Part shown: positions 4,924 through 61,722 of the stretch, piece by piece
Numbering within the stretch: position 1 is the first letter of the stretch
How the letters are laid out: every line of letters starts with the position of its first letter
Assembly: GCA_005889535.1 (NCBI GenBank)
Contig: VBHC01000123.1
Location: 1 to 61,722, forward strand
DNA from: Chloroflexota bacterium
GTDB lineage: Bacteria; Chloroflexota; Dormibacteria; CF-121
Direction of reading: 5' to 3'
DNA length: 61,722 bases
Notes under the pieces: model-generated
Databases searched by the model: none
Seen by the model: the letters and a program-made list of their open reading frames with translations, nothing else
What the model was told of the DNA's origin: nothing
Translations under genes and position numbers: made by a program

Positions 4924-5112
4924 GTGGGCGAGTTTGGCGACAAGGCGGAAGGCGAAATGAAGGATGCCGGCGGGAAGCTGACCGGCGACAAGAAGATGGA
5001 ATGGGAAGGCAAGGCGCAGAAGGTGAAGGGCGATGTCGAAGGCGCGGGGCGTGAGATGACCGAAGGCGAGCCTGCGACGGACAAGCCGGTCGAGGGCGAG
5101 AAGGGCGTCTAG
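4924..5112 (+). CDS. CsbD-family stress protein
   Basis: DKAEG.MK...GKLTGD..ME.EGKAQK.KG; AGGAGG RBS. Confidence 0.85.
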   Translation: MGEFGDKAEGEMKDAGGKLTGDKKMEWEGKAQKVKGDVEGAGREMTEGEPATDKPVEGEKGV

Positions 5113-5127
5113 AGGCGAGGATCGCGC

Positions 5128-5154
5128 AAACCGGCCTTCGGGCCGGTTTTTTTA
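5128..5154 (+). terminator. Intrinsic terminator (possibly bidirectional)
   Basis: AAACCGGCC-TTCG-GGCCGGTTTTTTT. Confidence 0.85.
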
Positions 5155-5739
5155 TCGGGGAGTGGCCGGTGGGCGAGTACCGCCCGGTGGGGATGATTCC
5201 GCGGTCGCGGCTTCGGTGGAAACCTCGGGTCCCGCCCGCCGTCCCGCCTGGTAGCGGCCCGCGGGTCCCGCCTCGGGAGTGGATGGCCCGCCCCCACGCG
5301 GCCGAATATGGCTCAGGGTGGATTCCCGCAAGATCAAGAAGAGCAAGAGGGCAACCGACCCCAGGAGGAAATTCACGCTCAGCCACGCGCTTCCGATGGC
5401 AGGGGTAAAAAATCCGAGCACGAAACCGATCAGTGCCATGAAGAAGGCCGCGATGCTACCGATGTGCATGAACTCGTCCTGGAGGTGATGCCGCGGAAAC
5501 AGCTGCTGCAGACGGTCTTCCAGGGCGGACCGCGACCTGCCGCCCGATGGCAGGCCGGACGATCGAACCGGGCCGCTCGGCGGATCCGCTTGCGATTTCC
5601 CGCAGAACCGGCAAAACCGGGCACCCGCCTCAATGGGCTTGCCGCACTCCCGGCAAAAGATGGTTGCGCTCTTTTCGGCTGAGGCCGCGGCTGACAAAGC
5701 TGCCCCATTATAGGTTGGCGCTCTCCAGTTCGCGGCCAC
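5152..5739 (-). CDS. Zinc-ribbon membrane protein
   Basis: FCRECG...ARFCRFCG plus two TM segments; start uncertain. Confidence 0.7.
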   Translation of the reverse strand: MAANWRAPTYNGAALSAAASAEKSATIFCRECGKPIEAGARFCRFCGKSQADPPSGPVRSSGLPSGGRSRSALEDRLQQLFPRHHLQDEFMHIGSIAAFFMALIGFVLGFFTPAIGSAWLSVNFLLGSVALLLFLILRESTLSHIRPRGGGPSTPEAGPAGRYQAGRRAGPEVSTEAATAESSPPGGTRPPATPR

Positions 5740-5893
5740 CTCCCGGAGGGCGTAACCAAAGTCCCGGCGGGGCCGTTCGACAGAGGCAACCGGAACATTC
5801 TCGGACCCATCCCGTACAGAGGAGCTCCGCTTAGGTTACAATGGCTAAGTCAGATTTCCGTAGAGCAGTTACGGTACGTTTTAGGGGCCTGAA

Positions 5894-6088
5894 ATGATCA
5901 ACATCCGGCATGCGACCCACTCAGTCACCGCAGATGGCCTCTCGTCCCTCGCCGCTCGCCGACGGCAGATCCGGCGTCAGCGCCGGTCTACGGCGCGGGC
6001 GCTGGCGAGCGGACTGGGGTGGGGAGCGGTTATGCTCCTCTCTCTGTGGCTCCTGCTTTCGGGGATCTCCGGGTTTCTGAGCGCCTAG
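5894..6088 (+). CDS. Small basic membrane protein
   Basis: Arg-rich stretch and C-terminal TM; AGGGG RBS-like. Confidence 0.45.
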   Translation: MINIRHATHSVTADGLSSLAARRRQIRRQRRSTARALASGLGWGAVMLLSLWLLLSGISGFLSA

Positions 6089-8313
6089 CGGCTCGCCGGC
6101 GCACACAACGCCACGTAGACCGGTGGCGAAAGCGCAGCCGTGCCGACTTCCGTCGCACCGTGATCCTTGGTGTCGTGGTGGTGTTGCTCCTGCCCCTGAT
6201 GGGCATCCCCGCGATCACCGCCCAGGCCGTTGGACCCTTGCCCGCCGTCAGCGGCCTGTCGTCCAACAAGCTCCAGCAGGACACGCTGATCTACGACCGC
6301 CATGGGCAGCTGCTCGCCGACGTCGGCAAGGAGGGCAATCACCGGATCGTCGTGCCCCTCAACTACGTCTCGCCCTGGGTCGTGAAGGCGACCCTGGCCA
6401 CCGAGGACCGCACCTTCTACAGCAACAGCGGCATCGACGTCGGCGGCATTCTTCGGGCCGCGATCGCGAACTACCAGCACCATCACATTCAGCAGGGCGG
6501 GAGCACCATCAGCCAGCAGTTGATCAAGCAGGTCTACATCGGAAGCAACGCTCCAAACGACATCCAGCGCAAGATGAAGGAAGCGATCCTTGCCATCGAG
6601 CTGAACCGCGAATACAGCAAGAATCAGATCCTGGAGATGTATCTCAACACCATCTTCTACGGGAGCCAGACCTATGGGATCGAGGCGGCAGCACGCAGCT
6701 ACTTCCAGACCAACGCCCACGATGTGTCGCTGGCCCAGGCCGCCATGCTGGCCGGCCTCCCTCAGGCGCCGACGCGATACAACCCGGTCGTCAACTTCGC
6801 GTCCGCCAAACAGCGCCAGGCGCAGGTGCTGGCCGCCATGGTTGGCGAGAAGTTCATCACGGCGGCCGACGCCCAGGCTGCCTATGCCGTCAAGCTCCAG
6901 GTCTTCTCTCCCGTCACCAAGTTCGAGGCGCCCTACTTCGTCGACTACGTCTTGAAGACGCTCGCCAAGGACCACGGCATCAACTCCAGCGATCAGCGGG
7001 GCTATCGCGTCTACACCAGCCTCGACCTGAATCTCCAGCACATGGCGGAGAAAGTGGTGCGCGACCAGGTGGCGCAGAAGGGCGGTTTCTACAACTTCCA
7101 TGATGCGGCGCTGGTCAGCATGGACCCGAAAACCGGCCAGGTGCTCGCCATGGTCGGCGGCGTCGACTACAACCGACCCGGAGGCCAATTCAACTTCGCC
7201 TACGACGTCCCGCGCCCGCCCGGCTCGAGTTTCAAGATCTTCACCTACACGGCCGCCATCGAGAGCCGGAAAGTAAACATGCTGAGTCCGGTGCTCGACG
7301 CCCCGATGGTCTTCCCCACCGGTGGCGATGGTCCCGGCTACATGAGCGGATATGCGAAGTACATTCCGCAGAACTATGACCGCCGCTTTCACGGCACGCT
7401 GCCGCTCAAAATGGTGATGGGTAACTCGTTGAACATCCCCGCGCTGAAGGTTGAGCTGCGCACGGGCATCCCCGCGGTGGTCGACATGGCACACCGACTT
7501 GGCCTGACCTGTCTGGGCGAACCCTGCGACCGAAAACCCGCTGACTACGGCATGAGCCTGACGCTGGGCGCCTACCCCGTACGGCTGGCGGACATGGCGA
7601 CCGCGGCCTCAACGCTGGCGACGCTCGGCGTCCGCCACCGCGAAGCGCCAATCCTCAGCATCAAGGACGGACTGGGCCGCGCCGTCTACACATATGACCC
7701 GAAAACCGTGGAGTACCGGGCGGTCGACCCGGGCGTGGCCTTCATCATCGCGTCCATCATGTCCGACGACCGCAACCGTTGCCTTGAATTCGGCTGTGGC
7801 GGCGACCTTACCCTGGCTGGGCGCCACGTCGCCGCCAAGACCGGCACCACCAACGATTTCAAAGACAACTGGACGGTCGGTTTTACACCGAGCCTGGCGA
7901 CCGCCGTGTGGGTGGGAAACCCTGACAACAAGCCGCTCAGTCACAACTCGACCGGGATCGTCGGCGCCGCTCCCATCTGGCACAAGTTCATGACACAGGC
8001 ACTCGCCGGCAAACCGGATGAGTGGTACGGCGCAGTCCCGGCAGGCATCGACCAGATCGGGCAGAACTACTTCCTGACCGGCACCGAAAACCTGCCGAAG
8101 ACGCTGGCGCAGCCGTGGCCGCAATGCAAGCTCCCCGCGAACTACAGTCCCTACAGCCTGAGCTATTCGCAGATCACGGTGGATGGCGTCTACTGCGTCA
8201 TCAACGCGCCCAAGCCGCCGCCGGCGCCGACGCCTTCACCCGCGCCCAGCCCAACGCCTGACTGCCTGCCGGGTCTACCGCTTCCGCCCGGTCAGTGCAA
8301 GCCACATGACTAG
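6019..8313 (+). CDS. Class A penicillin-binding protein (transglycosylase-transpeptidase)
   Basis: EDRTFY, GGSTISQQL, RKMKE, SSFK, SLN, KTGTT; Pro-rich tail; true start probably further downstream. Confidence 0.95.
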   Translation: MGSGYAPLSVAPAFGDLRVSERLAARRRTQRHVDRWRKRSRADFRRTVILGVVVVLLLPLMGIPAITAQAVGPLPAVSGLSSNKLQQDTLIYDRHGQLLADVGKEGNHRIVVPLNYVSPWVVKATLATEDRTFYSNSGIDVGGILRAAIANYQHHHIQQGGSTISQQLIKQVYIGSNAPNDIQRKMKEAILAIELNREYSKNQILEMYLNTIFYGSQTYGIEAAARSYFQTNAHDVSLAQAAMLAGLPQAPTRYNPVVNFASAKQRQAQVLAAMVGEKFITAADAQAAYAVKLQVFSPVTKFEAPYFVDYVLKTLAKDHGINSSDQRGYRVYTSLDLNLQHMAEKVVRDQVAQKGGFYNFHDAALVSMDPKTGQVLAMVGGVDYNRPGGQFNFAYDVPRPPGSSFKIFTYTAAIESRKVNMLSPVLDAPMVFPTGGDGPGYMSGYAKYIPQNYDRRFHGTLPLKMVMGNSLNIPALKVELRTGIPAVVDMAHRLGLTCLGEPCDRKPADYGMSLTLGAYPVRLADMATAASTLATLGVRHREAPILSIKDGLGRAVYTYDPKTVEYRAVDPGVAFIIASIMSDDRNRCLEFGCGGDLTLAGRHVAAKTGTTNDFKDNWTVGFTPSLATAVWVGNPDNKPLSHNSTGIVGAAPIWHKFMTQALAGKPDEWYGAVPAGIDQIGQNYFLTGTENLPKTLAQPWPQCKLPANYSPYSLSYSQITVDGVYCVINAPKPPPAPTPSPAPSPTPDCLPGLPLPPGQCKPHD

Positions 8314-8340
8314 CGCCCCGACCGCTTCCCTGAGAGCGGC

Positions 8341-8715
8341 CTAGGCGATCCCCGGCTGGTCGGTGGAGGCTTTTTCGCCGCGGCCCTGCTCGCCGTCGCC
8401 GAAGGGCATCCGCTGGGCGAGCTCGCCGGCACGGTCACGGAGCTCGATGCCGCGCTGCATCAGGTCGTCTCGCATTTCCTCGCCGGTCTTGGGAGCGAGC
8501 AGTAAGGCGAGCCCGAAGCCGACAGCGACCCCGATCAACAGCCCGGTAACGAACCGCTCGACGCCGGCGTCTTCGTCCTGCGTGAGGCGGGTGCGCCGCA
8601 AGGCCGCCACCGCGTCCGTCAAACGGTCTTTCACCTCGAAATCCTGGGCCGCCTTGTTCGCGCGATCGAGCAGGTCGCTCAATCGGTCGATCGTCTTCTC
8701 CACGGTCTGATCCAT
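8341..8715 (-). CDS. YtxH domain protein
   Basis: G.LIG.AVG..LALLLAPKTGEEMR. Confidence 0.8.
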   Translation of the reverse strand: MDQTVEKTIDRLSDLLDRANKAAQDFEVKDRLTDAVAALRRTRLTQDEDAGVERFVTGLLIGVAVGFGLALLLAPKTGEEMRDDLMQRGIELRDRAGELAQRMPFGDGEQGRGEKASTDQPGIA

Positions 8716-24501: not shown

Positions 24502-24579
24502 GGCCCGTTCGTCTAGCTGGTCCAGGACGCTGCCCTCTCAAGGCAGAAATCAGCGGTTCGAATCCGCTACGGGCTACCA
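24502..24579 (+). tRNA. tRNA-Glu(CTC)
   Basis: Cloverleaf GGCCCGT...ACGGGCT-ACCA; anticodon arm CTGCC-CTCTCAA-GGCAG; GGTTCGAATCC. Confidence 0.95.
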
Positions 24580-24690
24580 CTCAACTGGACACTCTGCGGC
24601 TGTGCTTCCCGCTGAGGTTCTCCATCCCGACATTGGCGCTTGCCCGCAAGGTAACGTCGGTCATCGAGATTTAGCAGTCACAACACCGTC

Positions 24691-24939
24691 GTGTCTTACC
24701 CCACGCGACCCGAAGAAGATCAGGAGCGGACGCGGATCCAATTAGGCTGCGCCCTAGCGGCCGCCATTGGGATCGCTTTCCTGTTGCTTGTCCTCTTCGG
24801 AATCGTCTATTTGTTTTTCGTCGCTCTTGGGCATGTGACGATCGCTGCCGCAGCGGTTGAACAGACATCGCCTGGACTGGCGCCAAATTCGATTGTTCGA
24901 TTAGTGTCCGCCACGGGCTATAAAACCAATTTCGGATAG
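24691..24939 (+). CDS. Small membrane protein (cassette 1); ORF runs through the repeat, possibly truncated
   Basis: Long hydrophobic segment. Confidence 0.45.
   Translation: MSYPTRPEEDQERTRIQLGCALAAAIGIAFLLLVLFGIVYLFFVALGHVTIAAAAVEQTSPGLAPNSIVRLVSATGYKTNFG
24882..24920 (+). repeat. tRNA-Glu 3'-end-derived att-like repeat, copy 1
   Basis: GCCAAATTCGATTGTTCGATTAGTGTCCGCCACGGGCTA. Confidence 0.85.
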
Positions 24940-24986
24940 GTTCGGGCTATGCCTGCTGCGACACGTAGGCTTTGCCGCCCCCGGAG

Positions 24987-25571
24987 TCAGCTCCCAGGCC
25001 CAGCAACCGGCCCGAGAGAATTCGCGATCTGCCAGAACTCGGCTTCCGCGAAGCCCTCGGTGGAGAGGAAGTACGGGACGCCATACTCCGGCTTGATCTG
25101 GAGGTTCGGGCTGGCCGTGCCGGGCTCTCCCCAGTCAATGAACCTCCGGCTGGTGGGCGGCGACTGGCTATCGACCTGGTAAAGGGCCGTAACCCCGCGG
25201 AAACGCGGGTATGACTGGGTACCGTCTGGCTGCGGCGGCGGCGGTTGGGCTATCCCGAGCTCGAAGAAGATACGCCGCGAGCCGTCCACGCTGGCATAGG
25301 TGACCTGAAAGTCATCGGCCGACACTGTCACCTGGGCGGTGTATCCGACAGGAATTGCTTTAGGCAGAAGCACCGGCCGCGACCCGGTCACTGTCCGCCC
25401 GATCAGGGCCGCTGCCTCGTCCAACGAGAGGGTGCGCGGCATCGTGGCCGGGGTGGGGGAAGTCGGGGTCGTGTTGGTCGCCCGAGAGATATGTTGGGCC
25501 CCGCCGCACGCGCTGAGAATGAGGGTCGCCGCAATGGCGAGGCCGGAACCCGCGCGGGCTAGCTTGCGCAC
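24987..25571 (-). CDS. Putative lipoprotein (cassette 2)
   Basis: Lipobox LSAC, Thr/Pro linker. Confidence 0.7.
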   Translation of the reverse strand: MRKLARAGSGLAIAATLILSACGGAQHISRATNTTPTSPTPATMPRTLSLDEAAALIGRTVTGSRPVLLPKAIPVGYTAQVTVSADDFQVTYASVDGSRRIFFELGIAQPPPPQPDGTQSYPRFRGVTALYQVDSQSPPTSRRFIDWGEPGTASPNLQIKPEYGVPYFLSTEGFAEAEFWQIANSLGPVAGPGS

Positions 25572-25801
25572 CTTCTAGCTGTGTTAACGATCGCCGCTCC
25601 GGAAAGTTCCTCGGGCTCTGCAGCAAGGTACCAAAGTGCACGCTTTAGACTCGCAGATGGGGAGTCGGCAGACGCCCTAGAGGCTGGGCAACCTGTCATT
25701 GAATAGGCTCCCGGGGGTCTCCTGCTCCCCTCGCTTAAGCTCCCGGTGTCCTTGACACTGCCTCGCGGTGCCCACTTAAACTACGGGTCTGCTGGGACCG
25801 A

Positions 25802-25840
25802 CCCAATTAAATTGTTCGATTAGTGTCCGCTGGGGCTACC
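25802..25840 (+). repeat. att-like repeat, copy 2
   Basis: CCCAATTAAATTGTTCGATTAGTGTCCGCTGGGGCTACC. Confidence 0.8.
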
Positions 25841-25961
25841 GCCGAACTCCGGTTCCATGGCCGACGCGCCTGCGCCGAATGTGTAATCCCGTGCGGATCT
25901 GGTCGTGCCGCCGAGCCACCCGCTTACCATAAGGGCGCTAACAGGACATGAGAGGTGAGCC

Positions 25962-26324
25962 ATGGAGCAGGTGCTAACGATCTCGACAACCTGGGGAACG
26001 AACGACCCAACGAAGGCAACGATCCCATTCCATCTAGCCCGCGGCGCCAAGCAGACCGGCATTGATGTCCGGATTGTTCTCGCGGGCGACTCGACAGACC
26101 TGATCCGCTCGGGCGTTGCGGAGACGGTACGAGGCAAGGGCGTACCGCCGCTTGCTGAAGTTCTGGACTTCGCGCGCGAAAACAAAATCCCAGTGCATGT
26201 CTGAAAGGGTTGCGCCGAGGCCCGTGGGGTCTCTCAGGCTGAGGTCGATGCCATCGGCGGATCGTGGATCGATCCAAAAGGTTGGACGCGCTTGATCATT
26301 GAGGGACGTAACATCGCGTTCTAA
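25962..26324 (+). CDS. DsrE/DsrF-family protein, probable selenoprotein (in-frame TGA 26202-26204; cassette 3)
   Basis: DPTKATIPF..A.GA...V.I.L.GD DsrE pattern; V-TGA-K-G-C-AEARG sits at the CxxC position; frame continues 39 codons to TAA. Confidence 0.8.
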
Positions 26325-26354
26325 TTAGACGGTCGTGCCTGACGGCGACGAGTC

Positions 26355-26391
26355 GCCAAAGCCGTGTCCGATTAGTGTCCGCCACGGGCTA
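26355..26391 (+). repeat. att-like repeat, copy 3
   Basis: GCCAAAGCCGTGTCCGATTAGTGTCCGCCACGGGCTA. Confidence 0.85.
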
Positions 26392-26420
26392 TGACTACCC
26401 CAACTCTTGAATAGGCCGAG

Positions 26421-27077
26421 CTATCGAGTGATGTTGGTCTTGGCCCTCGCCGCACTGGCTAAGCGCCCGGCGCTGCGCCTGCGCCATAGGACGATACCGC
26501 CAATTCCAGCTGCGATCAGAACCAGCGCCGCGACCTCGGGCAGGAGCTCGATCGGCGACCACGGCGACCGGCCCATCGCCCAGACGGTCAAACCGCTCGG
26601 CATGGTTGAGCATTGGACCTCGCCTTTGCTGCTGTAGCGCGTCGGAGGCAATCCATCATCGGCGCTCCGTGTCAGGTGGGCCCAGAGACCGCCTCTGTTA
26701 GCGTTGGTAAAGGTGACGTCAAGCGAGTTCAGCACGAGATGTTCGTGTTGCCGATGTCGCGCCGCGAAATAGGCCATCAAGTTCTCCCGGTCGTACGCTT
26801 CCGCGTTGAGACGCTGTCCAGGGGCATCCGTTGCATACCAGACAAACTGCTGCTGGGATACGAGTCGGTCCAGTTGGGCGATGTCGCCCCGGTTGAAGGC
26901 ATCAATGAAGCGCTCGACGACCTGGCGGACTCCTTGGGGCGTGCATTGATTTGGAGTACCGGGCGAGCCCGATGCAGCTCCCACCTGGCAACCGGCCAGA
27001 AGGACGAGCTGCGTGCAGCTCGCCACGATTAGCCAGAGACGTCTGCCCATCGCCAGAACGACGCGGGCCTTGCCCAT
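26421..27077 (-). CDS. Putative lipoprotein with NTF2-like fold and C-terminal TM (cassette 4)
   Basis: LAGC lipobox; VERFIDAFNRGD; C-terminal TM + RRR. Confidence 0.6.
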   Translation of the reverse strand: MGKARVVLAMGRRLWLIVASCTQLVLLAGCQVGAASGSPGTPNQCTPQGVRQVVERFIDAFNRGDIAQLDRLVSQQQFVWYATDAPGQRLNAEAYDRENLMAYFAARHRQHEHLVLNSLDVTFTNANRGGLWAHLTRSADDGLPPTRYSSKGEVQCSTMPSGLTVWAMGRSPWSPIELLPEVAALVLIAAGIGGIVLWRRRSAGRLASAARAKTNITR

Positions 27078-27134
27078 TCCCCTGCGGCGCAGCCTACCCC
27101 ACGCCGACGGCTTACGACGGGTCTTTGGAGACCG

Positions 27135-27173
27135 GCCAATTCAATTGTTCGATTAGTGTCCGCCACGGGCTAC
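27135..27173 (+). repeat. att-like repeat, copy 4
   Basis: GCCAATTCAATTGTTCGATTAGTGTCCGCCACGGGCTAC. Confidence 0.85.
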
Positions 27174-29561: not shown

Positions 29562-29993
29562 GACGGCTCTTCCGGTACGCTGGCGCCCTTCATCCATAAG
29601 CTGGTGTCGGGCGATGACCTGGCTCGCCAGTTCGCACTCCGATCGCCATGCGGCGAACATATCATCGACATCGGCGCCGTCGATGTCATTGAAGTCGGCA
29701 TCCGGGTCCGCATCGGTCGCGTAGAGGTCGCCAATAACCTCCAGTGCCAGAGTCCGCCGAAACCAACCTCGTTCCACATCAGTCAGATGGCGAATAAGTC
29801 CGAGTAGGCTGAGCGTCGAGGGAGCCGCCGAACGCGTTCGCAGTTGCTCTGGCGTGAGGCCAGCGCACTTCCGCGCCAGCGTCGACCGCTGCCACTCCAG
29901 GAAGGCGACAAGCGTCGCCCGCTCATCGGCCGTGCGCGGGATGTCGTCGTATCGCAGCTCTACGGGTGAAGCCTTCCCCTCGGTCCTGGCCAT
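29460..29993 (-). CDS. DinB/DUF664 family protein
   Basis: L..QR...KC.GL, LLGLIRHL..VE..WF, HMIEEYSRHNGHADLLRE.IDG. Confidence 0.85.
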   Translation of the reverse strand: MARTEGKASPVELRYDDIPRTADERATLVAFLEWQRSTLARKCAGLTPEQLRTRSAAPSTLSLLGLIRHLTDVERGWFRRTLALEVIGDLYATDADPDADFNDIDGADVDDMFAAWRSECELASQVIARHQLMDEGRQRTGRAVSLRWILVHMIEEYSRHNGHADLLRERIDGATGY

Positions 29994-58494: not shown

Positions 58495-59067
58495 TCAGGC
58501 CGGCACGCCGGCGAGGCCGAGCGCGGTGGCGCTGCCCTTCATGGCGTCGATCACGACCTGGATGTGCTCGTCCAGGTCGACGCCCAATTGCTCGGCGCCG
58601 GTGAAAATCTGCTCTCGGTGCACCGCCCGAGCGAAGGCTTTGTCCTTGAACTTCTTCTTCACCGAGGCGACGTCCACCTCGGCAACCGATTTGGTCGGCC
58701 GGACCAGCGCGACGGCGGCCACGAACCCGACCAGCTCGTCGACGGCGTAGAGGACCTTCTGCATCGGGGTGGTCCGCGGGGCGTTGGCGTAGTCGGCGTG
58801 GGAGAGGACGGCGTACCAGATCTCCTGCGGCCAGCCGCGCTCCTTCAGGATCTCGGCACCCTTGACGGCATGCTCGCCCACCTCCGGGTAGCGCTCGTAG
58901 TCGTAGTCGTGGAGGAGGCCGGCGACCCCCCAGACGTCCGGGTTGCCGCCGTACTTCCGAGCGTAGGCCCGCATGGCCGACTCAACGCCCAGGGCGTGCT
59001 TGACCAGGCTGGGGTTCTTGGTGAACTCGGTGAGCGTCGCCCAGGCATCCTCCCGGCTGCTCGGCAT
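58495..59067 (-). CDS. HD-domain phosphohydrolase
   Basis: H...V, GLLHD.DYE, H, DEL.GF.A.ALVRP. Confidence 0.88.
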   Translation of the reverse strand: MPSSREDAWATLTEFTKNPSLVKHALGVESAMRAYARKYGGNPDVWGVAGLLHDYDYERYPEVGEHAVKGAEILKERGWPQEIWYAVLSHADYANAPRTTPMQKVLYAVDELVGFVAAVALVRPTKSVAEVDVASVKKKFKDKAFARAVHREQIFTGAEQLGVDLDEHIQVVIDAMKGSATALGLAGVPA

Positions 59068-59086
59068 TGGTCGTCGAGTGTAACAG

Positions 59087-59128
59087 CCCCTAACACCCTC
59101 CCCCGCTCGCGTGGGAGGGCAGGGTGGG
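59087..59128. repeat. REP-like palindromic repeat
   Basis: ACCCTCCCCCGCTCGCGTGGGAGGGCAGGGTGGG. Confidence 0.55.
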
Positions 59129-59206
59129 TTGGGCGCCGGTAGGCACTTTGGGCTATTGACGGCCTGCCGCGGCCGCCCTACGCTCACGTCAGGAGGTTTG
59201 GTTTAC

Positions 59207-59392: not shown

Positions 59393-59464
59393 GGGGGTGT
59401 AGCTCAGTGGTAGAGCACCTGCCTTTTAAGCAGGGTGTCGAGAGTTCGATCCTCTCCGCCCCTA
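59393..59464 (+). tRNA. tRNA-Lys(TTT)
   Basis: GGGGGTG/CGCCCCT acceptor; CCTGC-CTTTTAA-GCAGG; GAGAG-TTCGATC-CTCTC; CCA not encoded. Confidence 0.95.
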
Positions 59465-59643
59465 CTTCATCGCCAGCCTTGAAGCGTGGCGTGAATGGAT
59501 AACCCATCCGATGCGCAGCTAGCGTGCCGTGCGCGGTTCCCTAAAGCATCAAGGCAATTCTTGCTTCGACGTTCCATTGTCGCCTGGCTGGATGACACTG
59601 GCGACCGTCATGCTAGCGTCCTCCCCGTCGGCCAGCCACCAGG

Positions 59644-60150
59644 TTACGGAGCAACGAGTATCAGTGACGACATTCGTGGGCAGCCCAACACAGGCTCTTT
59701 GAGGATGTCTTCCGGAGCCGTCACAGCGCCATCGAGATTCACGAACTCGCCGACGGTAGCCACCGGCTGGCCGTTCTGGCTATAGACGGTCAACGGATTA
59801 CCGTGCGCCGAATATCGGGGCGGCCACATCAGGGCAGGCTGGTAGCCTTCGTTACTAAGCCAAAAGCAGGCCGTGCCGTCAGCGTTGATTCGACCTGCGA
59901 GCAAACCAGTTACTCCCGTCAATGCGCGTCCTTCCGGTAAAGCGCCGGCCCCGGCGGGGGGAGACCAAGTGGCCACCTTGTAACTGGGGGTGGACGACCC
60001 GATCCGGAACCCGACGACACCGAATGAGACAAGCACTACAGCGGTTAGGAGCATGTAAGCGTGGCCAGGCTTTTCTTTGACAAGAGATCGAGCCAGAGTC
60101 ACAAGCCTCATAAAGGGTATGACGGACGCCGCGCGGCAACCCGACAGCAC
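59644..60150 (-). CDS. Exported hypothetical protein (Lys-array cassette 1)
   Basis: TM then G.L....C.WL....LMWP..Y; true start probably downstream of 60150. Confidence 0.6.
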   Translation of the reverse strand: MLSGCRAASVIPFMRLVTLARSLVKEKPGHAYMLLTAVVLVSFGVVGFRIGSSTPSYKVATWSPPAGAGALPEGRALTGVTGLLAGRINADGTACFWLSNEGYQPALMWPPRYSAHGNPLTVYSQNGQPVATVGEFVNLDGAVTAPEDILKEPVLGCPRMSSLILVAP

Positions 60151-60306
60151 ATTGAGACCAGCGGAACATACTTTGGCAGGGAGTAAGAGACTGGTGCGCT
60201 GAAGGCGCTAAATAGCCGGAATGGTCTCCTCTTTGTCCATGGCGTCGGAGACTTCGGCGGCGCTGCTAGCTCCTAGAAAGCCGTTCTTGAGCGTGCCATT
60301 CCCCTG

Positions 60307-60440
60307 CACCATAACTGCGCCAGCGTCGCTTGACCTCCCAAACTCGGAGCTACAGCGCACAAGCGCGCCTGGCTTTTAAGCTGGGTGTCGAGAGTTCGAT
60401 CCTCTCCGCCCCTATGTCGGATACATTCGCACACCCTAAC
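60307..60440 (+). repeat. tRNA-Lys 3'-half repeat with conserved arms, copy 1
   Basis: 66-nt arm + CTTTTAAG...CGCCCCTA (60373-60414) + ATACA..GCACA.C..AAC. Confidence 0.9.
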
Positions 60441-60514
60441 GGCAACCGGCCTGAGCTACGAGGTCGACTCACATCCCAACTCGTCCCCTTTGGCCTTGCT
60501 CGGGCAGGAAGGAC

Positions 60515-61162
60515 GTGAACTCGTATCCGTTGAAGAGTTCGATGTCTATTCTGAGCCGCCGCCGAGGGGTGAACGTCCTCTCCGCGTTTGCCGTCGCAGT
60601 AGCAGCGATATTGATTGGATGGGCGGCCCTAGCTTGGCTGATGCCGGCCAATAGCCGGAAGGCTGACCGGCAATCCACGTGTACCCTTCCGACAGGTTCG
60701 GTCACCTACCAGGAGCTGCAATGCCATCCCGAGGCGAACTTGATCTACCCCGGAAGCACGGTTTTCCAGGGGATTGGTGCTTCGCAGACCAACACTTTCG
60801 ACGGTATCAATCCGGCCTTTAGCGGGGCCATTTTGATCTCGTCGGATCCGGTAACTAAAATCTATGCTTGGTACGACTCTTGGCTAAAGCAGCATGAGTG
60901 GTACCGCTCGCCCCTACTCGGAGCCGGTTATGTTTCGTCGCACGGCTATGCACGCGTTGGTGGGCGAGAAGCCTTCGACGTGGATATCGATAATCCGGCT
61001 CAACTTAGCGCTACGCTCGGAAAAAAGGTTCCTGCGGGTGGCACGATTTTCGAGGTCGTCTACCTCGTCTTCCCGTATACAGCCGGGGCGAAGTCGGCCC
61101 CATCTTGCGCATCAACTCCACCACCCACCGGACCACTGGACTCTTTCTATTGCAATCCGTGA
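60515..61162 (+). CDS. Exported hypothetical protein (Lys-array cassette 2)
   Basis: N-terminal TM; YPGS...WYD..L...W; appears lower in GC than flanks. Confidence 0.65.
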   Translation: MNSYPLKSSMSILSRRRGVNVLSAFAVAVAAILIGWAALAWLMPANSRKADRQSTCTLPTGSVTYQELQCHPEANLIYPGSTVFQGIGASQTNTFDGINPAFSGAILISSDPVTKIYAWYDSWLKQHEWYRSPLLGAGYVSSHGYARVGGREAFDVDIDNPAQLSATLGKKVPAGGTIFEVVYLVFPYTAGAKSAPSCASTPPPTGPLDSFYCNP

Positions 61163-61402
61163 TCCCATTGGTCTTTTAACTCAGCAAACTTGACGCTGGA
61201 TCATCGTGGCGAACCGTAATGGCCGTACCTTGGGTCTACGAAGGGTGGAGAGGGCACTGCGTAAGCCAGGGGATGCCGTGGCACAGGCCAATGCTGAGCC
61301 TCCGCCCCAGAGATGGGATCCAGCCGCGCAGGTAAAACGGGTAACCGGAGCCTAACGGCTTATGTTTCGTCTCGCTCGGCTCGAACCAGGGACCATTTCG
61401 CA

Positions 61403-61536
61403 CACCATAACTTCGCCGGTTTCGCTTGGCCGCGGCAACTCGAGGCTACAGCGCTCAAGCCCTGCTACCTTTTAAGCAGGGTGTCGAGAGTTCGATCCTC
61501 TCCGCCCCTAATCCAAATACAAAGGCACAGCCCAAC
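61403..61536 (+). repeat. tRNA-Lys 3'-half repeat with conserved arms, copy 2
   Basis: Same architecture; core 61469-61510 identical to the tRNA 3' half. Confidence 0.9.
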
Positions 61537-61567
61537 TAATTTCCTGCCCGTACAGCGCTTGAGGGAA

Positions 61568-61722
61568 TTACTCGGCACCCATCGCCCGAGGATTACCAAC
61601 CCGCGTGGTGTTGGCTGTTGGCGCGGTTGACACGGAGATGACGACCTTTCCTCGAGCGCGCCCGGTTTCGAGATAGCGGATCGCGTCTGCGGCTTCGCTC
61701 AGCGGATACGTCCGGTCAATGA
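61568..61722 (-). CDS. C-terminus of MDR-family (quinone oxidoreductase/ADH-like) enzyme; partial
   Basis: My translation: IDRTYPLSEAADAIRYLETGRARGKVVI. Confidence 0.75.
   Translation of the reverse strand, partial: IDRTYPLSEAADAIRYLETGRARGKVVISVSTAPTANTTRVGNPRAMGAE

Follow-up and report, generated by a model that had tools for sequence, protein, structure and literature searches.

Cores, arms and cassettes behind tRNA-Lys(UUU)

The window analysed here, the entire 61,722-nt contig VBHC01000123.1 (C46) of a Chloroflexota metagenome-assembled genome (G000; 2.77 Mb, 221 contigs, 81% complete), ends in a tandem array of small gene cassettes behind a tRNA-Lys(UUU) gene. The array is anchored by the intact tRNA gene, and its boundaries are copies of a 42-nt core that begins at CTTTTAAGC in the anticodon loop and runs to the 3′ end of the tRNA (Table 1). 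As the earlier note on this DNA had reported, this tRNA 3′ half recurs at 60373 and 61469, where it matches at 41/42 and 42/42 positions. The three cores of the window are spaced 950 and 1,096 nt apart, start to start, and all three are identical over their final 31 nt, against no match in 100 dinucleotide shuffles. Overall we found 105 cores and, at the array loci compared, identity to the tRNA begins exactly in the anticodon loop.

Immediately upstream of each displaced core lies a right arm (P arm) of 66 nt. The two window arms are identical at 49/66 positions without gaps, a recount that agrees exactly with the earlier note, and the two junctions share 79% identity across 134 nt. Alignment of 49 unique arms revealed a sharp 5′ edge at ACACCATAACTG, upstream of which the sequence is cargo-specific, and conserved blocks at ACACCATAACTG, TTTCGCTTGGCC and CAAACTCGGAGCTACAGCGC. 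The variants of the arm track the cargo to their left (all cassettes that pair an alcohol dehydrogenase (ADH) with a TetR regulator have one variant), which makes the arm part of the cassette. Many cores are followed by a further conserved stretch, about 75 nt long, that is the left arm (P′ arm) of the next cassette. A left-arm profile built from 13 flanks of other genomes, none of them from G000, matched 21 of 106 flanks at E < 0.001, most of these being seeds or copies of seeds. Within the window, the flank of core copy 2 matched strongly (E 1.3e-12) and that of copy 1 weakly (E 0.026 over 20 nt), so that the downstream motif described in the earlier note holds firmly at one copy and weakly at the other; the flank of tRNA-Lys itself gave no match.

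Given that neighbouring cassettes are separated by a core copy, each junction reads P arm, core, P′ arm, which on sequence grounds is an attP-like anatomy. The same view had been taken before, and it gains from two motifs that are shared by both arms as direct repeats, in the same order and direction and at fixed offsets. Motif A (ACACCNTAACTG) stands at about −68 before 54 of the 105 cores and at +15 to +18 after 12, and motif B (CTACAGCGC) at −24 before 60 of the 105 and at +42 after 4. In the whole 2.77-Mb genome motif A occurs only twice, each time at a junction.

One locus shows a split arm (L030; G005:C199, reverse-complement 255-965): after its 5′ two thirds come 0.6 kb that contain a 189-amino-acid (aa) open reading frame (ORF), and then its last third (GGCTACAGCGC..) and a core. 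Three other junction types retain just the last third of the arm. Such forms may reflect a second crossover point at motif B.

The cores of the window delimit units 1 and 2 and the start of unit 3. The cargo of unit 1 is a 168-aa protein whose matches in Atlas are hypothetical proteins only, and that of unit 2 is a 215-aa protein for which neither Pfam nor Atlas offers a named family, its clusters there being unnamed. Both proteins, judging by eye from their hydrophobic N-terminal stretches, are plausibly exported. Unit 1 is also present in a metagenome contig (L047) at 99.7% identity, and contigs of four public soil runs (records 6, 7, 16 and 29) span units 1 and 2 entirely with 0–1 differences.

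Unit 3 opens with an oxidoreductase, as the earlier note had it, namely the 3′ end of a zinc ADH gene. The window breaks off in the ADH C-terminal domain, and the reverse complement of another contig of the same genome (C64) begins inside the ADH N-terminal domain and continues with a divergent gene for a TetR regulator and a fourth arm plus core. The complete cassette, 1,973 nt long, is present in three metagenome contigs (L068, L059 and L081); the last 212 nt of the window correspond to its positions 1–213 and the first 1,262 nt of reversed C64 to positions 712–1973, at 97–98.7% identity. As both pieces map onto one cassette, unit 3 is an ADH–TetR cassette of about 1.97 kb, of which about 498 nt are unassembled. 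The fourth core, near one end of C64, closes the unit and carries a 6-nt deletion; the stretch is matched at 99.9% identity by a further metagenome contig (L053), which likewise has no intact core. Downstream come the truncated left end of an IS481-like insertion sequence (IS) and chromosomal genes for an Rce1-like protease and a membrane protein. Extension to the right, which the earlier note had proposed, thus led to a fourth junction on C64, and no integrase gene follows it on that contig.

Table 1 Features of the tRNA-Lys(UUU) array in the window
Feature	Positions	Strand	Basis or remarks
HD-domain protein gene	58495..59187	-	PF01966; conserved chromosomal left flank of the hotspot; same gene family precedes tRNA-Lys in relatives
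Intact tRNA-Lys(UUU) gene, array anchor (attL side)	59393..59465	+	ARAGORN; Rfam RF00005, 71.5 bits
Core, 42 nt, anticodon loop to tRNA 3′ end	59423..59464	+	The repeated stretch
Unit 1, 907 nt, without left arm	59466..60372		Bounded by cores; left-arm profile finds nothing behind the tRNA
Unit 1 cargo, 168-aa protein	59644..60150	-	ORF; no Pfam family; N-terminal hydrophobic stretch
Right arm (P arm) of unit 1, 66 nt	60307..60372	+	Alignable with 49 unique arms of other loci; 5′ boundary sharp, at ACACCATAACTG
Core copy 1	60373..60414	+	41/42 identical (A>T at 60382)
Unit 2, 1054 nt, left arm a degenerate remnant	60415..61468		Left-arm profile E 0.026 over 20 nt
Unit 2 cargo, 215-aa protein	60515..61162	+	ORF; no Pfam family; N-terminal hydrophobic stretch
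Right arm (P arm) of unit 2, 66 nt	61403..61468	+	Holds motif A (ACACCNTAACT)
Core copy 2	61469..61510	+	42/42 identical
Start of unit 3, first 212 nt of ADH plus TetR cassette	61511..61722		Then a gap of about 498 nt; continues on G000:C64, reverse complement
Left arm (P′) of unit 3	61512..61586	+	nhmmer E 1.3e-12 against profile of other genomes' left arms
Zinc alcohol dehydrogenase / quinone oxidoreductase gene, 3′ end, unit 3 cargo	61568..61720	-	PF13602, profile positions 107-134 of 134

Distribution and movement of the cassettes

The arm plus core junction lies behind tRNA-Lys(UUU) in 10 of 43 genomes of the bacterial family (probably Candidatus Dormibacterota), belonging to two genera, as well as in G012, and the junction pattern matches 40 soil metagenome contigs. 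All copies have one orientation and stand behind one tRNA gene; among the 43 family genomes no arm was found away from tRNA-Lys, and no arm turned up in any of the 392 genomes sampled from the rest of the phylum. Altogether, 57 loci yielded 49 complete core-to-core units of 159–5,146 nt (median 1,282), counts that are not independent because some metagenome contigs duplicate genome contigs (L047 equals G000, L059 nearly equals G008 and L064 nearly equals G009). Two of the genomes (G062 and G063) are unpublished; they contribute 2 of the 10 genomes with arms, 2 of the 49 complete units, 3 of the 49 unique arms and, in the left-arm profile, one seed and one hit, and no conclusion rests on them; G019 gave a tRNA only.

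The arm is full in 39 of the 49 units, reduced to its last third in two and missing in eight. Most units are small: 20 hold one ORF and 19 hold two, and the smallest are near-empty (159 nt in L052 and 468 nt in L078). ORFs lie on both strands (54 minus, 29 plus). A hand count by gene content gave about 26 kinds of cargo, among them a cupin, a PNPOx-like protein, a GNAT acetyltransferase, a chloroperoxidase-like protein, a luciferase-like monooxygenase, a hydrolase–cyclase fusion, an MmyB-type regulator with two short-chain dehydrogenases, ADH with TetR, STAND–LuxR regulators, a major facilitator superfamily (MFS) transporter, a WapI-like immunity protein and several proteins of no family. No recombinase, transposase, phage or conjugation domain was detected in 30 representative array proteins. 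The surroundings of the array are conserved, with genes for a permease, an ABC ATPase and the HD protein before the tRNA and a gene block some kilobases behind it; the interior is variable. GC content is 55–61% in the array region versus 60–69% in the flank, and at third codon positions it is 0.62–0.64 in cargo versus 0.77–0.88 in flank genes.

Cassettes change their rank in the array from genome to genome. The ADH–TetR cassette is third in G000 and first in G009 and in seven metagenome contigs (among them L054, L059, L068, L080, L081 and L084), and the cupin cassette heads the array in three loci (L050, L052 and L085) but comes later in others, such as L059, where it is third. The left end of a cassette can also differ: that of the regulator–dehydrogenase cassette is P′ in G006 and an IS end in G015. 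The possibility raised in the earlier note, that the units are eroded remnants of larger known islands with no variation at the repeat boundaries, is not borne out. Cassettes have spread between diverged genomes. A shared cassette is 7.7–20.3 percentage points more identical than the 1.6–3.5 kb of upstream flank in 14 of 15 locus pairs (the fifteenth being G000 against its own duplicate contig), with the limit that 10 of the 15 pairs involve the ADH–TetR cassette and the pairs are not independent. For example, unit 3 is 98.3% identical to L081 over 1,262 nt, against 80.0% over 3,508 nt of flank, and a GNAT unit shared by L054 and L081 is 100% identical over 656 nt, against 79.7% in the flank. 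The presence of 98–100% identical cassettes in backgrounds of about 80% identity implies recent movement.

Strain comparison yielded no locus with a flank at least 97% identical and yet a different array; the nearest loci by flank were L047 (99.4%, with the same array), L054 (90%) and G015 (89%). Assembled contigs stop within cores in four soil runs, out of 20 runs listed for this stretch (records 6 and 29 for unit 1, 7 and 16 for unit 2), and show no joint at a core, in a type of data in which rare forms are invisible. Contig depth over unit 3, summed over organisms, was 24.2 versus 7.1–7.4 in one run (X1), at most a hint that ADH–TetR is shared by more genomes.

ADH and TetR genes also follow tRNA-Lys and an IS end in G010 (L037; G010:C18, reverse-complement 6395-8346), where no arm or core comes after the two genes. 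Their identity to the G009 cassette is only 82%, and they may be either a fixed old copy or a source of the cassette.

Proposed integration, its enzyme and competing explanations

On balance, and with modest confidence, we read the units as integrase-less mini integrative elements that were probably inserted by site-specific recombination in the anticodon loop, with the enzyme acting in trans. We favour minimal integrative elements because identity to the tRNA starts in the anticodon loop, because both arms bear the motifs and because the arms travel with the cargo. Also in favour are repeats far beyond chance, the recurrence of the junction at one tRNA in other genomes, the changes of rank, the spread between diverged genomes, the lower GC of the cargo and the lack of mobility genes in what is an accessory cargo. 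A cassette comprises an optional P′ left arm of about 75 nt, a cargo of one or two genes in either orientation and the 66-nt P arm. Each would enter as a circle, its own attP recombining with the tRNA gene or with an existing junction by a crossover within the shared core, and a tyrosine-type integrase would be supplied in trans by another element. Crossover in the anticodon loop, as Williams is said to have set out in 2002, is a sublocation typical of one class of tyrosine integrase.

A bolder form of this proposal, which we put forward only tentatively, is that of an integron-like system on tRNA-Lys(UUU), in which single-gene cassettes with a full attP are moved singly and traded between species, their integrase residing off the array and mostly off the chromosome. 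In integrons the cassettes are small, mostly hold a single gene and bring their own recombination sites, and the enzyme is not encoded by the cassette. The Lys arrays likewise consist of small cassettes that each have their own recombination site. In contrast to an integron, however, the array is headed by the tRNA and the HD-domain gene, with no adjacent integrase or attI and no PF00589 match on the contig, and its cargo lies on both strands. Nor are there hairpin attC sites (z of about −1): attC-like hairpins were rejected as a description of the arms, since either strand of arm plus core, folded as single-stranded DNA, scored z values of −1.13 to 0.00, no better than shuffled sequence. These differences led us to reject the units as an integron proper. 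They were also rejected as insertion sequences or miniature transposons, being bounded by 42-nt direct repeats of the tRNA, with a sole inverted repeat of 25 nt at 72%.

Several results of the search for an enzyme and a parent element weigh against mini integrative elements served in trans. A tblastn search with five integrases of the family gave no hit in 59 array sequences. The only tyrosine recombinase (PF00589) in G000 is an Xer orthologue (C24 6196-7067), 94% identical at the protein level to a G015 gene, lying in two reading frames and about 60 nt shorter than in G015, which makes it either a broken gene or an assembly error; no serine recombinase (PF00239) was found in that genome. The near-complete G066 (four contigs) has an array and only an Xer-like gene plus an integrase at tRNA-Ser, and G005, G008 and G062 show the Xer-like gene only. 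Viral contigs yielded no match to the arm pattern or to the core. To these points must be added the interdependence of the loci, units and identity pairs counted above and signs of decay: unit 1 has no left arm, unit 2 has a remnant, 8 of 49 units are armless, the fourth core carries its deletion and IS remnants adjoin many cores. A parent element with an integrase was not found in the 43 family genomes, two scans of viral contigs or the 40 metagenome contigs. Relatives do have classic integrases directly behind tRNA-Ser(UGA) in G066, tRNA-Cys in G031 and tRNA-Lys(CUU) in G009, and none behind tRNA-Lys(UUU). As the tRNA–integrase spacers lack the left-arm motif, nothing links those integrases to the cassettes, and they were rejected as the cassette enzymes.

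The same findings lend some weight to the main rival, a relic array, a possible though doubtful account in which the units are decayed remains of larger integrase-bearing islands that integrated one after another. Site-specific recombination would no longer move them, and homologous recombination in the 108-nt repeats of arm plus core, following ordinary gene transfer, would now shuffle and spread them. No integrase lies in or near any array or was found in several array-bearing genomes; units without arms, missing or degenerate left arms, the deleted core and the G010 ADH–TetR genes without a junction fit such decay; and the truncated IS copies show that deletions occur at the locus. A three-step decay model has been published, in the part of the paper available (PMC5704250). 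Set against this, not one integrase fragment remains across the 59 array sequences. The cargo, of about 26 types, mostly consists of one or two intact genes, and 39 of 49 units retain a complete arm with a sharp edge. The conserved motif blocks of both arms would be unneeded for homologous recombination, and the 98–100% identical cassettes in diverged backgrounds imply movement that is recent.

Alternatively, a housekeeping Xer-like tyrosine recombinase could act on the junctions, which we consider improbable. The Xer-like gene is the sole tyrosine recombinase detected in G005, G008 and G062 and one of two in G066, and the anticodon stem–loop forms an inverted repeat around a short spacer; Xer-type action has reportedly been proposed for dif-like modules of Acinetobacter plasmids. 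An arm-binding integrase is instead what the long arms and their directly repeated motifs suggest, and to our knowledge Xer proteins have no arm-binding domain. Anticodon-loop cores are a hallmark of phage-type integrases.

It is very improbable that the junction is itself a small repeat element that has spread between resident genes, the 'cassettes' being ordinary genes. The last 27 nt of the unit 1 arm together with core copy 1 (60346-60414) do score weakly as a tRNA, below threshold (22.5 bits, E 0.16), and two units are near-empty; yet every copy has one orientation behind one tRNA gene, the gene content between copies is non-syntenic among genomes, and a given cargo keeps its arm variant while its rank differs. 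Chance similarity or an assembly artefact, for which one could cite the fragmented genome and an array that ends at a contig break, is refuted by the shuffles, by the same junctions in other genomes and 40 contigs and by the soil-run contigs that span units 1 and 2.

Other elements, other tRNA genes and known systems

The IS481-like ends beside some cores belong to a separate element. A complete copy lies on another contig of the genome (C128, ~5020-6380, minus strand), 5 nt behind tRNA-Thr(UGU); it encodes a 393-aa rve transposase and has TTCGGCTGATG sub-repeats, four at the left end and two at the right. Thirteen of the 49 cores are followed, at a distance of 8–11 nt and always in one direction, by no more than the first 100–130 nt of a related IS, with varied cut points. 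A remnant lies at C64 ~29760-29885, others follow many cores in relatives, and an intact related copy follows tRNA-Lys in G023. The element seems to target the region just 3′ of tRNA genes. The arm was considered as a possible right end of this element and rejected as such, the complete copy on C128 having its own inverted right end unlike the arm; a 446-aa ORF between an IS end and an arm (L086) was rejected as a transposase, being a secreted protein of no family.

Another repeat lies upstream of the tRNA, at 59096-59128: a 33-nt hairpin-like sequence (CCCTCCCCCGCTCGCGTGGGAGGGCAGGGTGGG) with a summed contig depth of 448–977 in four soil runs, compared with about 8–50 alongside, and with numerous loose contig ends on both sides in soil runs. 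It looks like a repetitive extragenic palindromic (REP)-like element common in these soils.

Of the 42 tRNA genes of G000, those for Lys-UUU, selenocysteine (SeC) and Ser-UGA are accompanied on their own contig by a displaced copy of the 3′ part, and the core at Glu-CUC is shorter. Behind tRNA-Glu(CUC) (window 24502-27173), four copies of a different arm (CAATT..ATTGTTCGATTAGTGTCC) are spaced 919, 552 and 781 nt apart, start to start, with a core of about 12 nt from the tRNA 3′ end. At tRNA-SeC (C179 30232-32377) about 65 nt of the 3′ part are repeated 2 kb downstream, and at tRNA-Ser(UGA) (C198 3148-4875) about 60 nt from the anticodon loop are repeated 1.6 kb downstream; both are single small islands, and neither C179 nor C198 has a PF00589 match. 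The earlier note had seen in the Lys and Glu arrays one strategy served by different recombinases, possibly genome-wide. Arms and core position do differ between the two; a different recombinase is not established, neither enzyme having been found. Multi-unit arrays with conserved arms are present at both, and at only those two of the 42 tRNA genes, which leaves a genome-wide system unestablished.

The Lys units have counterparts among tRNA-associated islands in other bacteria. Decay of integrase-bearing islands is the classic origin of cis-mobilizable elements. Those described among streptococcal integrative and conjugative or mobilizable elements have, in the part of the account available, att sites at tRNA 3′ ends, no integrase or transfer genes, a tandem arrangement and an integrase presumed to act in trans (PMC5704250). 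The likeness to the Lys units extends to the tRNA-derived att flanks (attL and attR are kept), the tandem arrangement and the lack of integration and transfer genes. As far as that part goes, the Lys units differ in being far smaller (median 1.3 kb, often one gene), in having both arms common to about 26 cargo types and in lacking a known integrase-bearing parent, with no decayed integrase in 59 sequences (PMC5704250). The ssrA (tmRNA) islands of Dehalococcoides, in the accessible portion of their description, are tandem and have direct repeats of the 3′ end with a conserved motif beside each repeat; 15 lack an integration module and were suggested to be cis-mobilizable elements, and 16 have a serine-recombinase module, a 20 bp repeat and an insertion point in the T-loop (PMC3146451). 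The tandem position behind one small RNA gene, the 3′-end repeats and the adjoining motif recur in the Lys array, whereas the Lys units, compared with what that portion gives, are all recombinase-free and have a 42-nt anticodon-loop core and arms of 66 and about 75 nt (PMC3146451).

Prochlorococcus tycheposons, according to the section of the preprint available, carry their own integrase and replication genes, integrase-less pieces being degenerated remnants, and their islands are stacked at tRNA genes with partial tRNA copies between them, newer arrivals pushing older ones inward, with strain-level variation (bioRxiv 10.1101/2020.12.28.424599). The Lys units resemble them as cargo elements stacked at a tRNA gene with partial tRNA copies between and, set beside that section, differ in having no tyrosine or serine recombinase or replication genes and in forming a family with conserved arms (bioRxiv 10.1101/2020.12.28.424599). 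Alteromonas additive flexible genomic islands, too, occupy tRNA hotspots with cassettes that vary in number and kind and are near-identical across diverged species, features shared with the Lys arrays; the part of that paper available gives an island-level description without a shared arm sequence, whereas the Lys cassettes all have the same site anatomy (PMC4898812). A literature search returned no paper on such arrays in Dormibacterota. What is new here is the small size of the units, a two-armed site common to about 26 cargo types, the complete absence of linked recombinases from more than 50 loci and the host phylum.

How small integrase-less pieces move at tRNA hotspots has usually been left open. 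The shared site (a 66-nt arm, a 42-nt core, a second arm of about 75 nt and two motifs) and the exchange between species of about 80% identity make that question testable. The cassettes also offer an initial look at the circulation of accessory genes within a widespread, uncultured phylum of soil bacteria, with a cargo that ranges over redox enzymes, regulators, transporters and secreted proteins; were they to move as proposed, the outcome would be an exchangeable set of accessory genes for the bacterial family.

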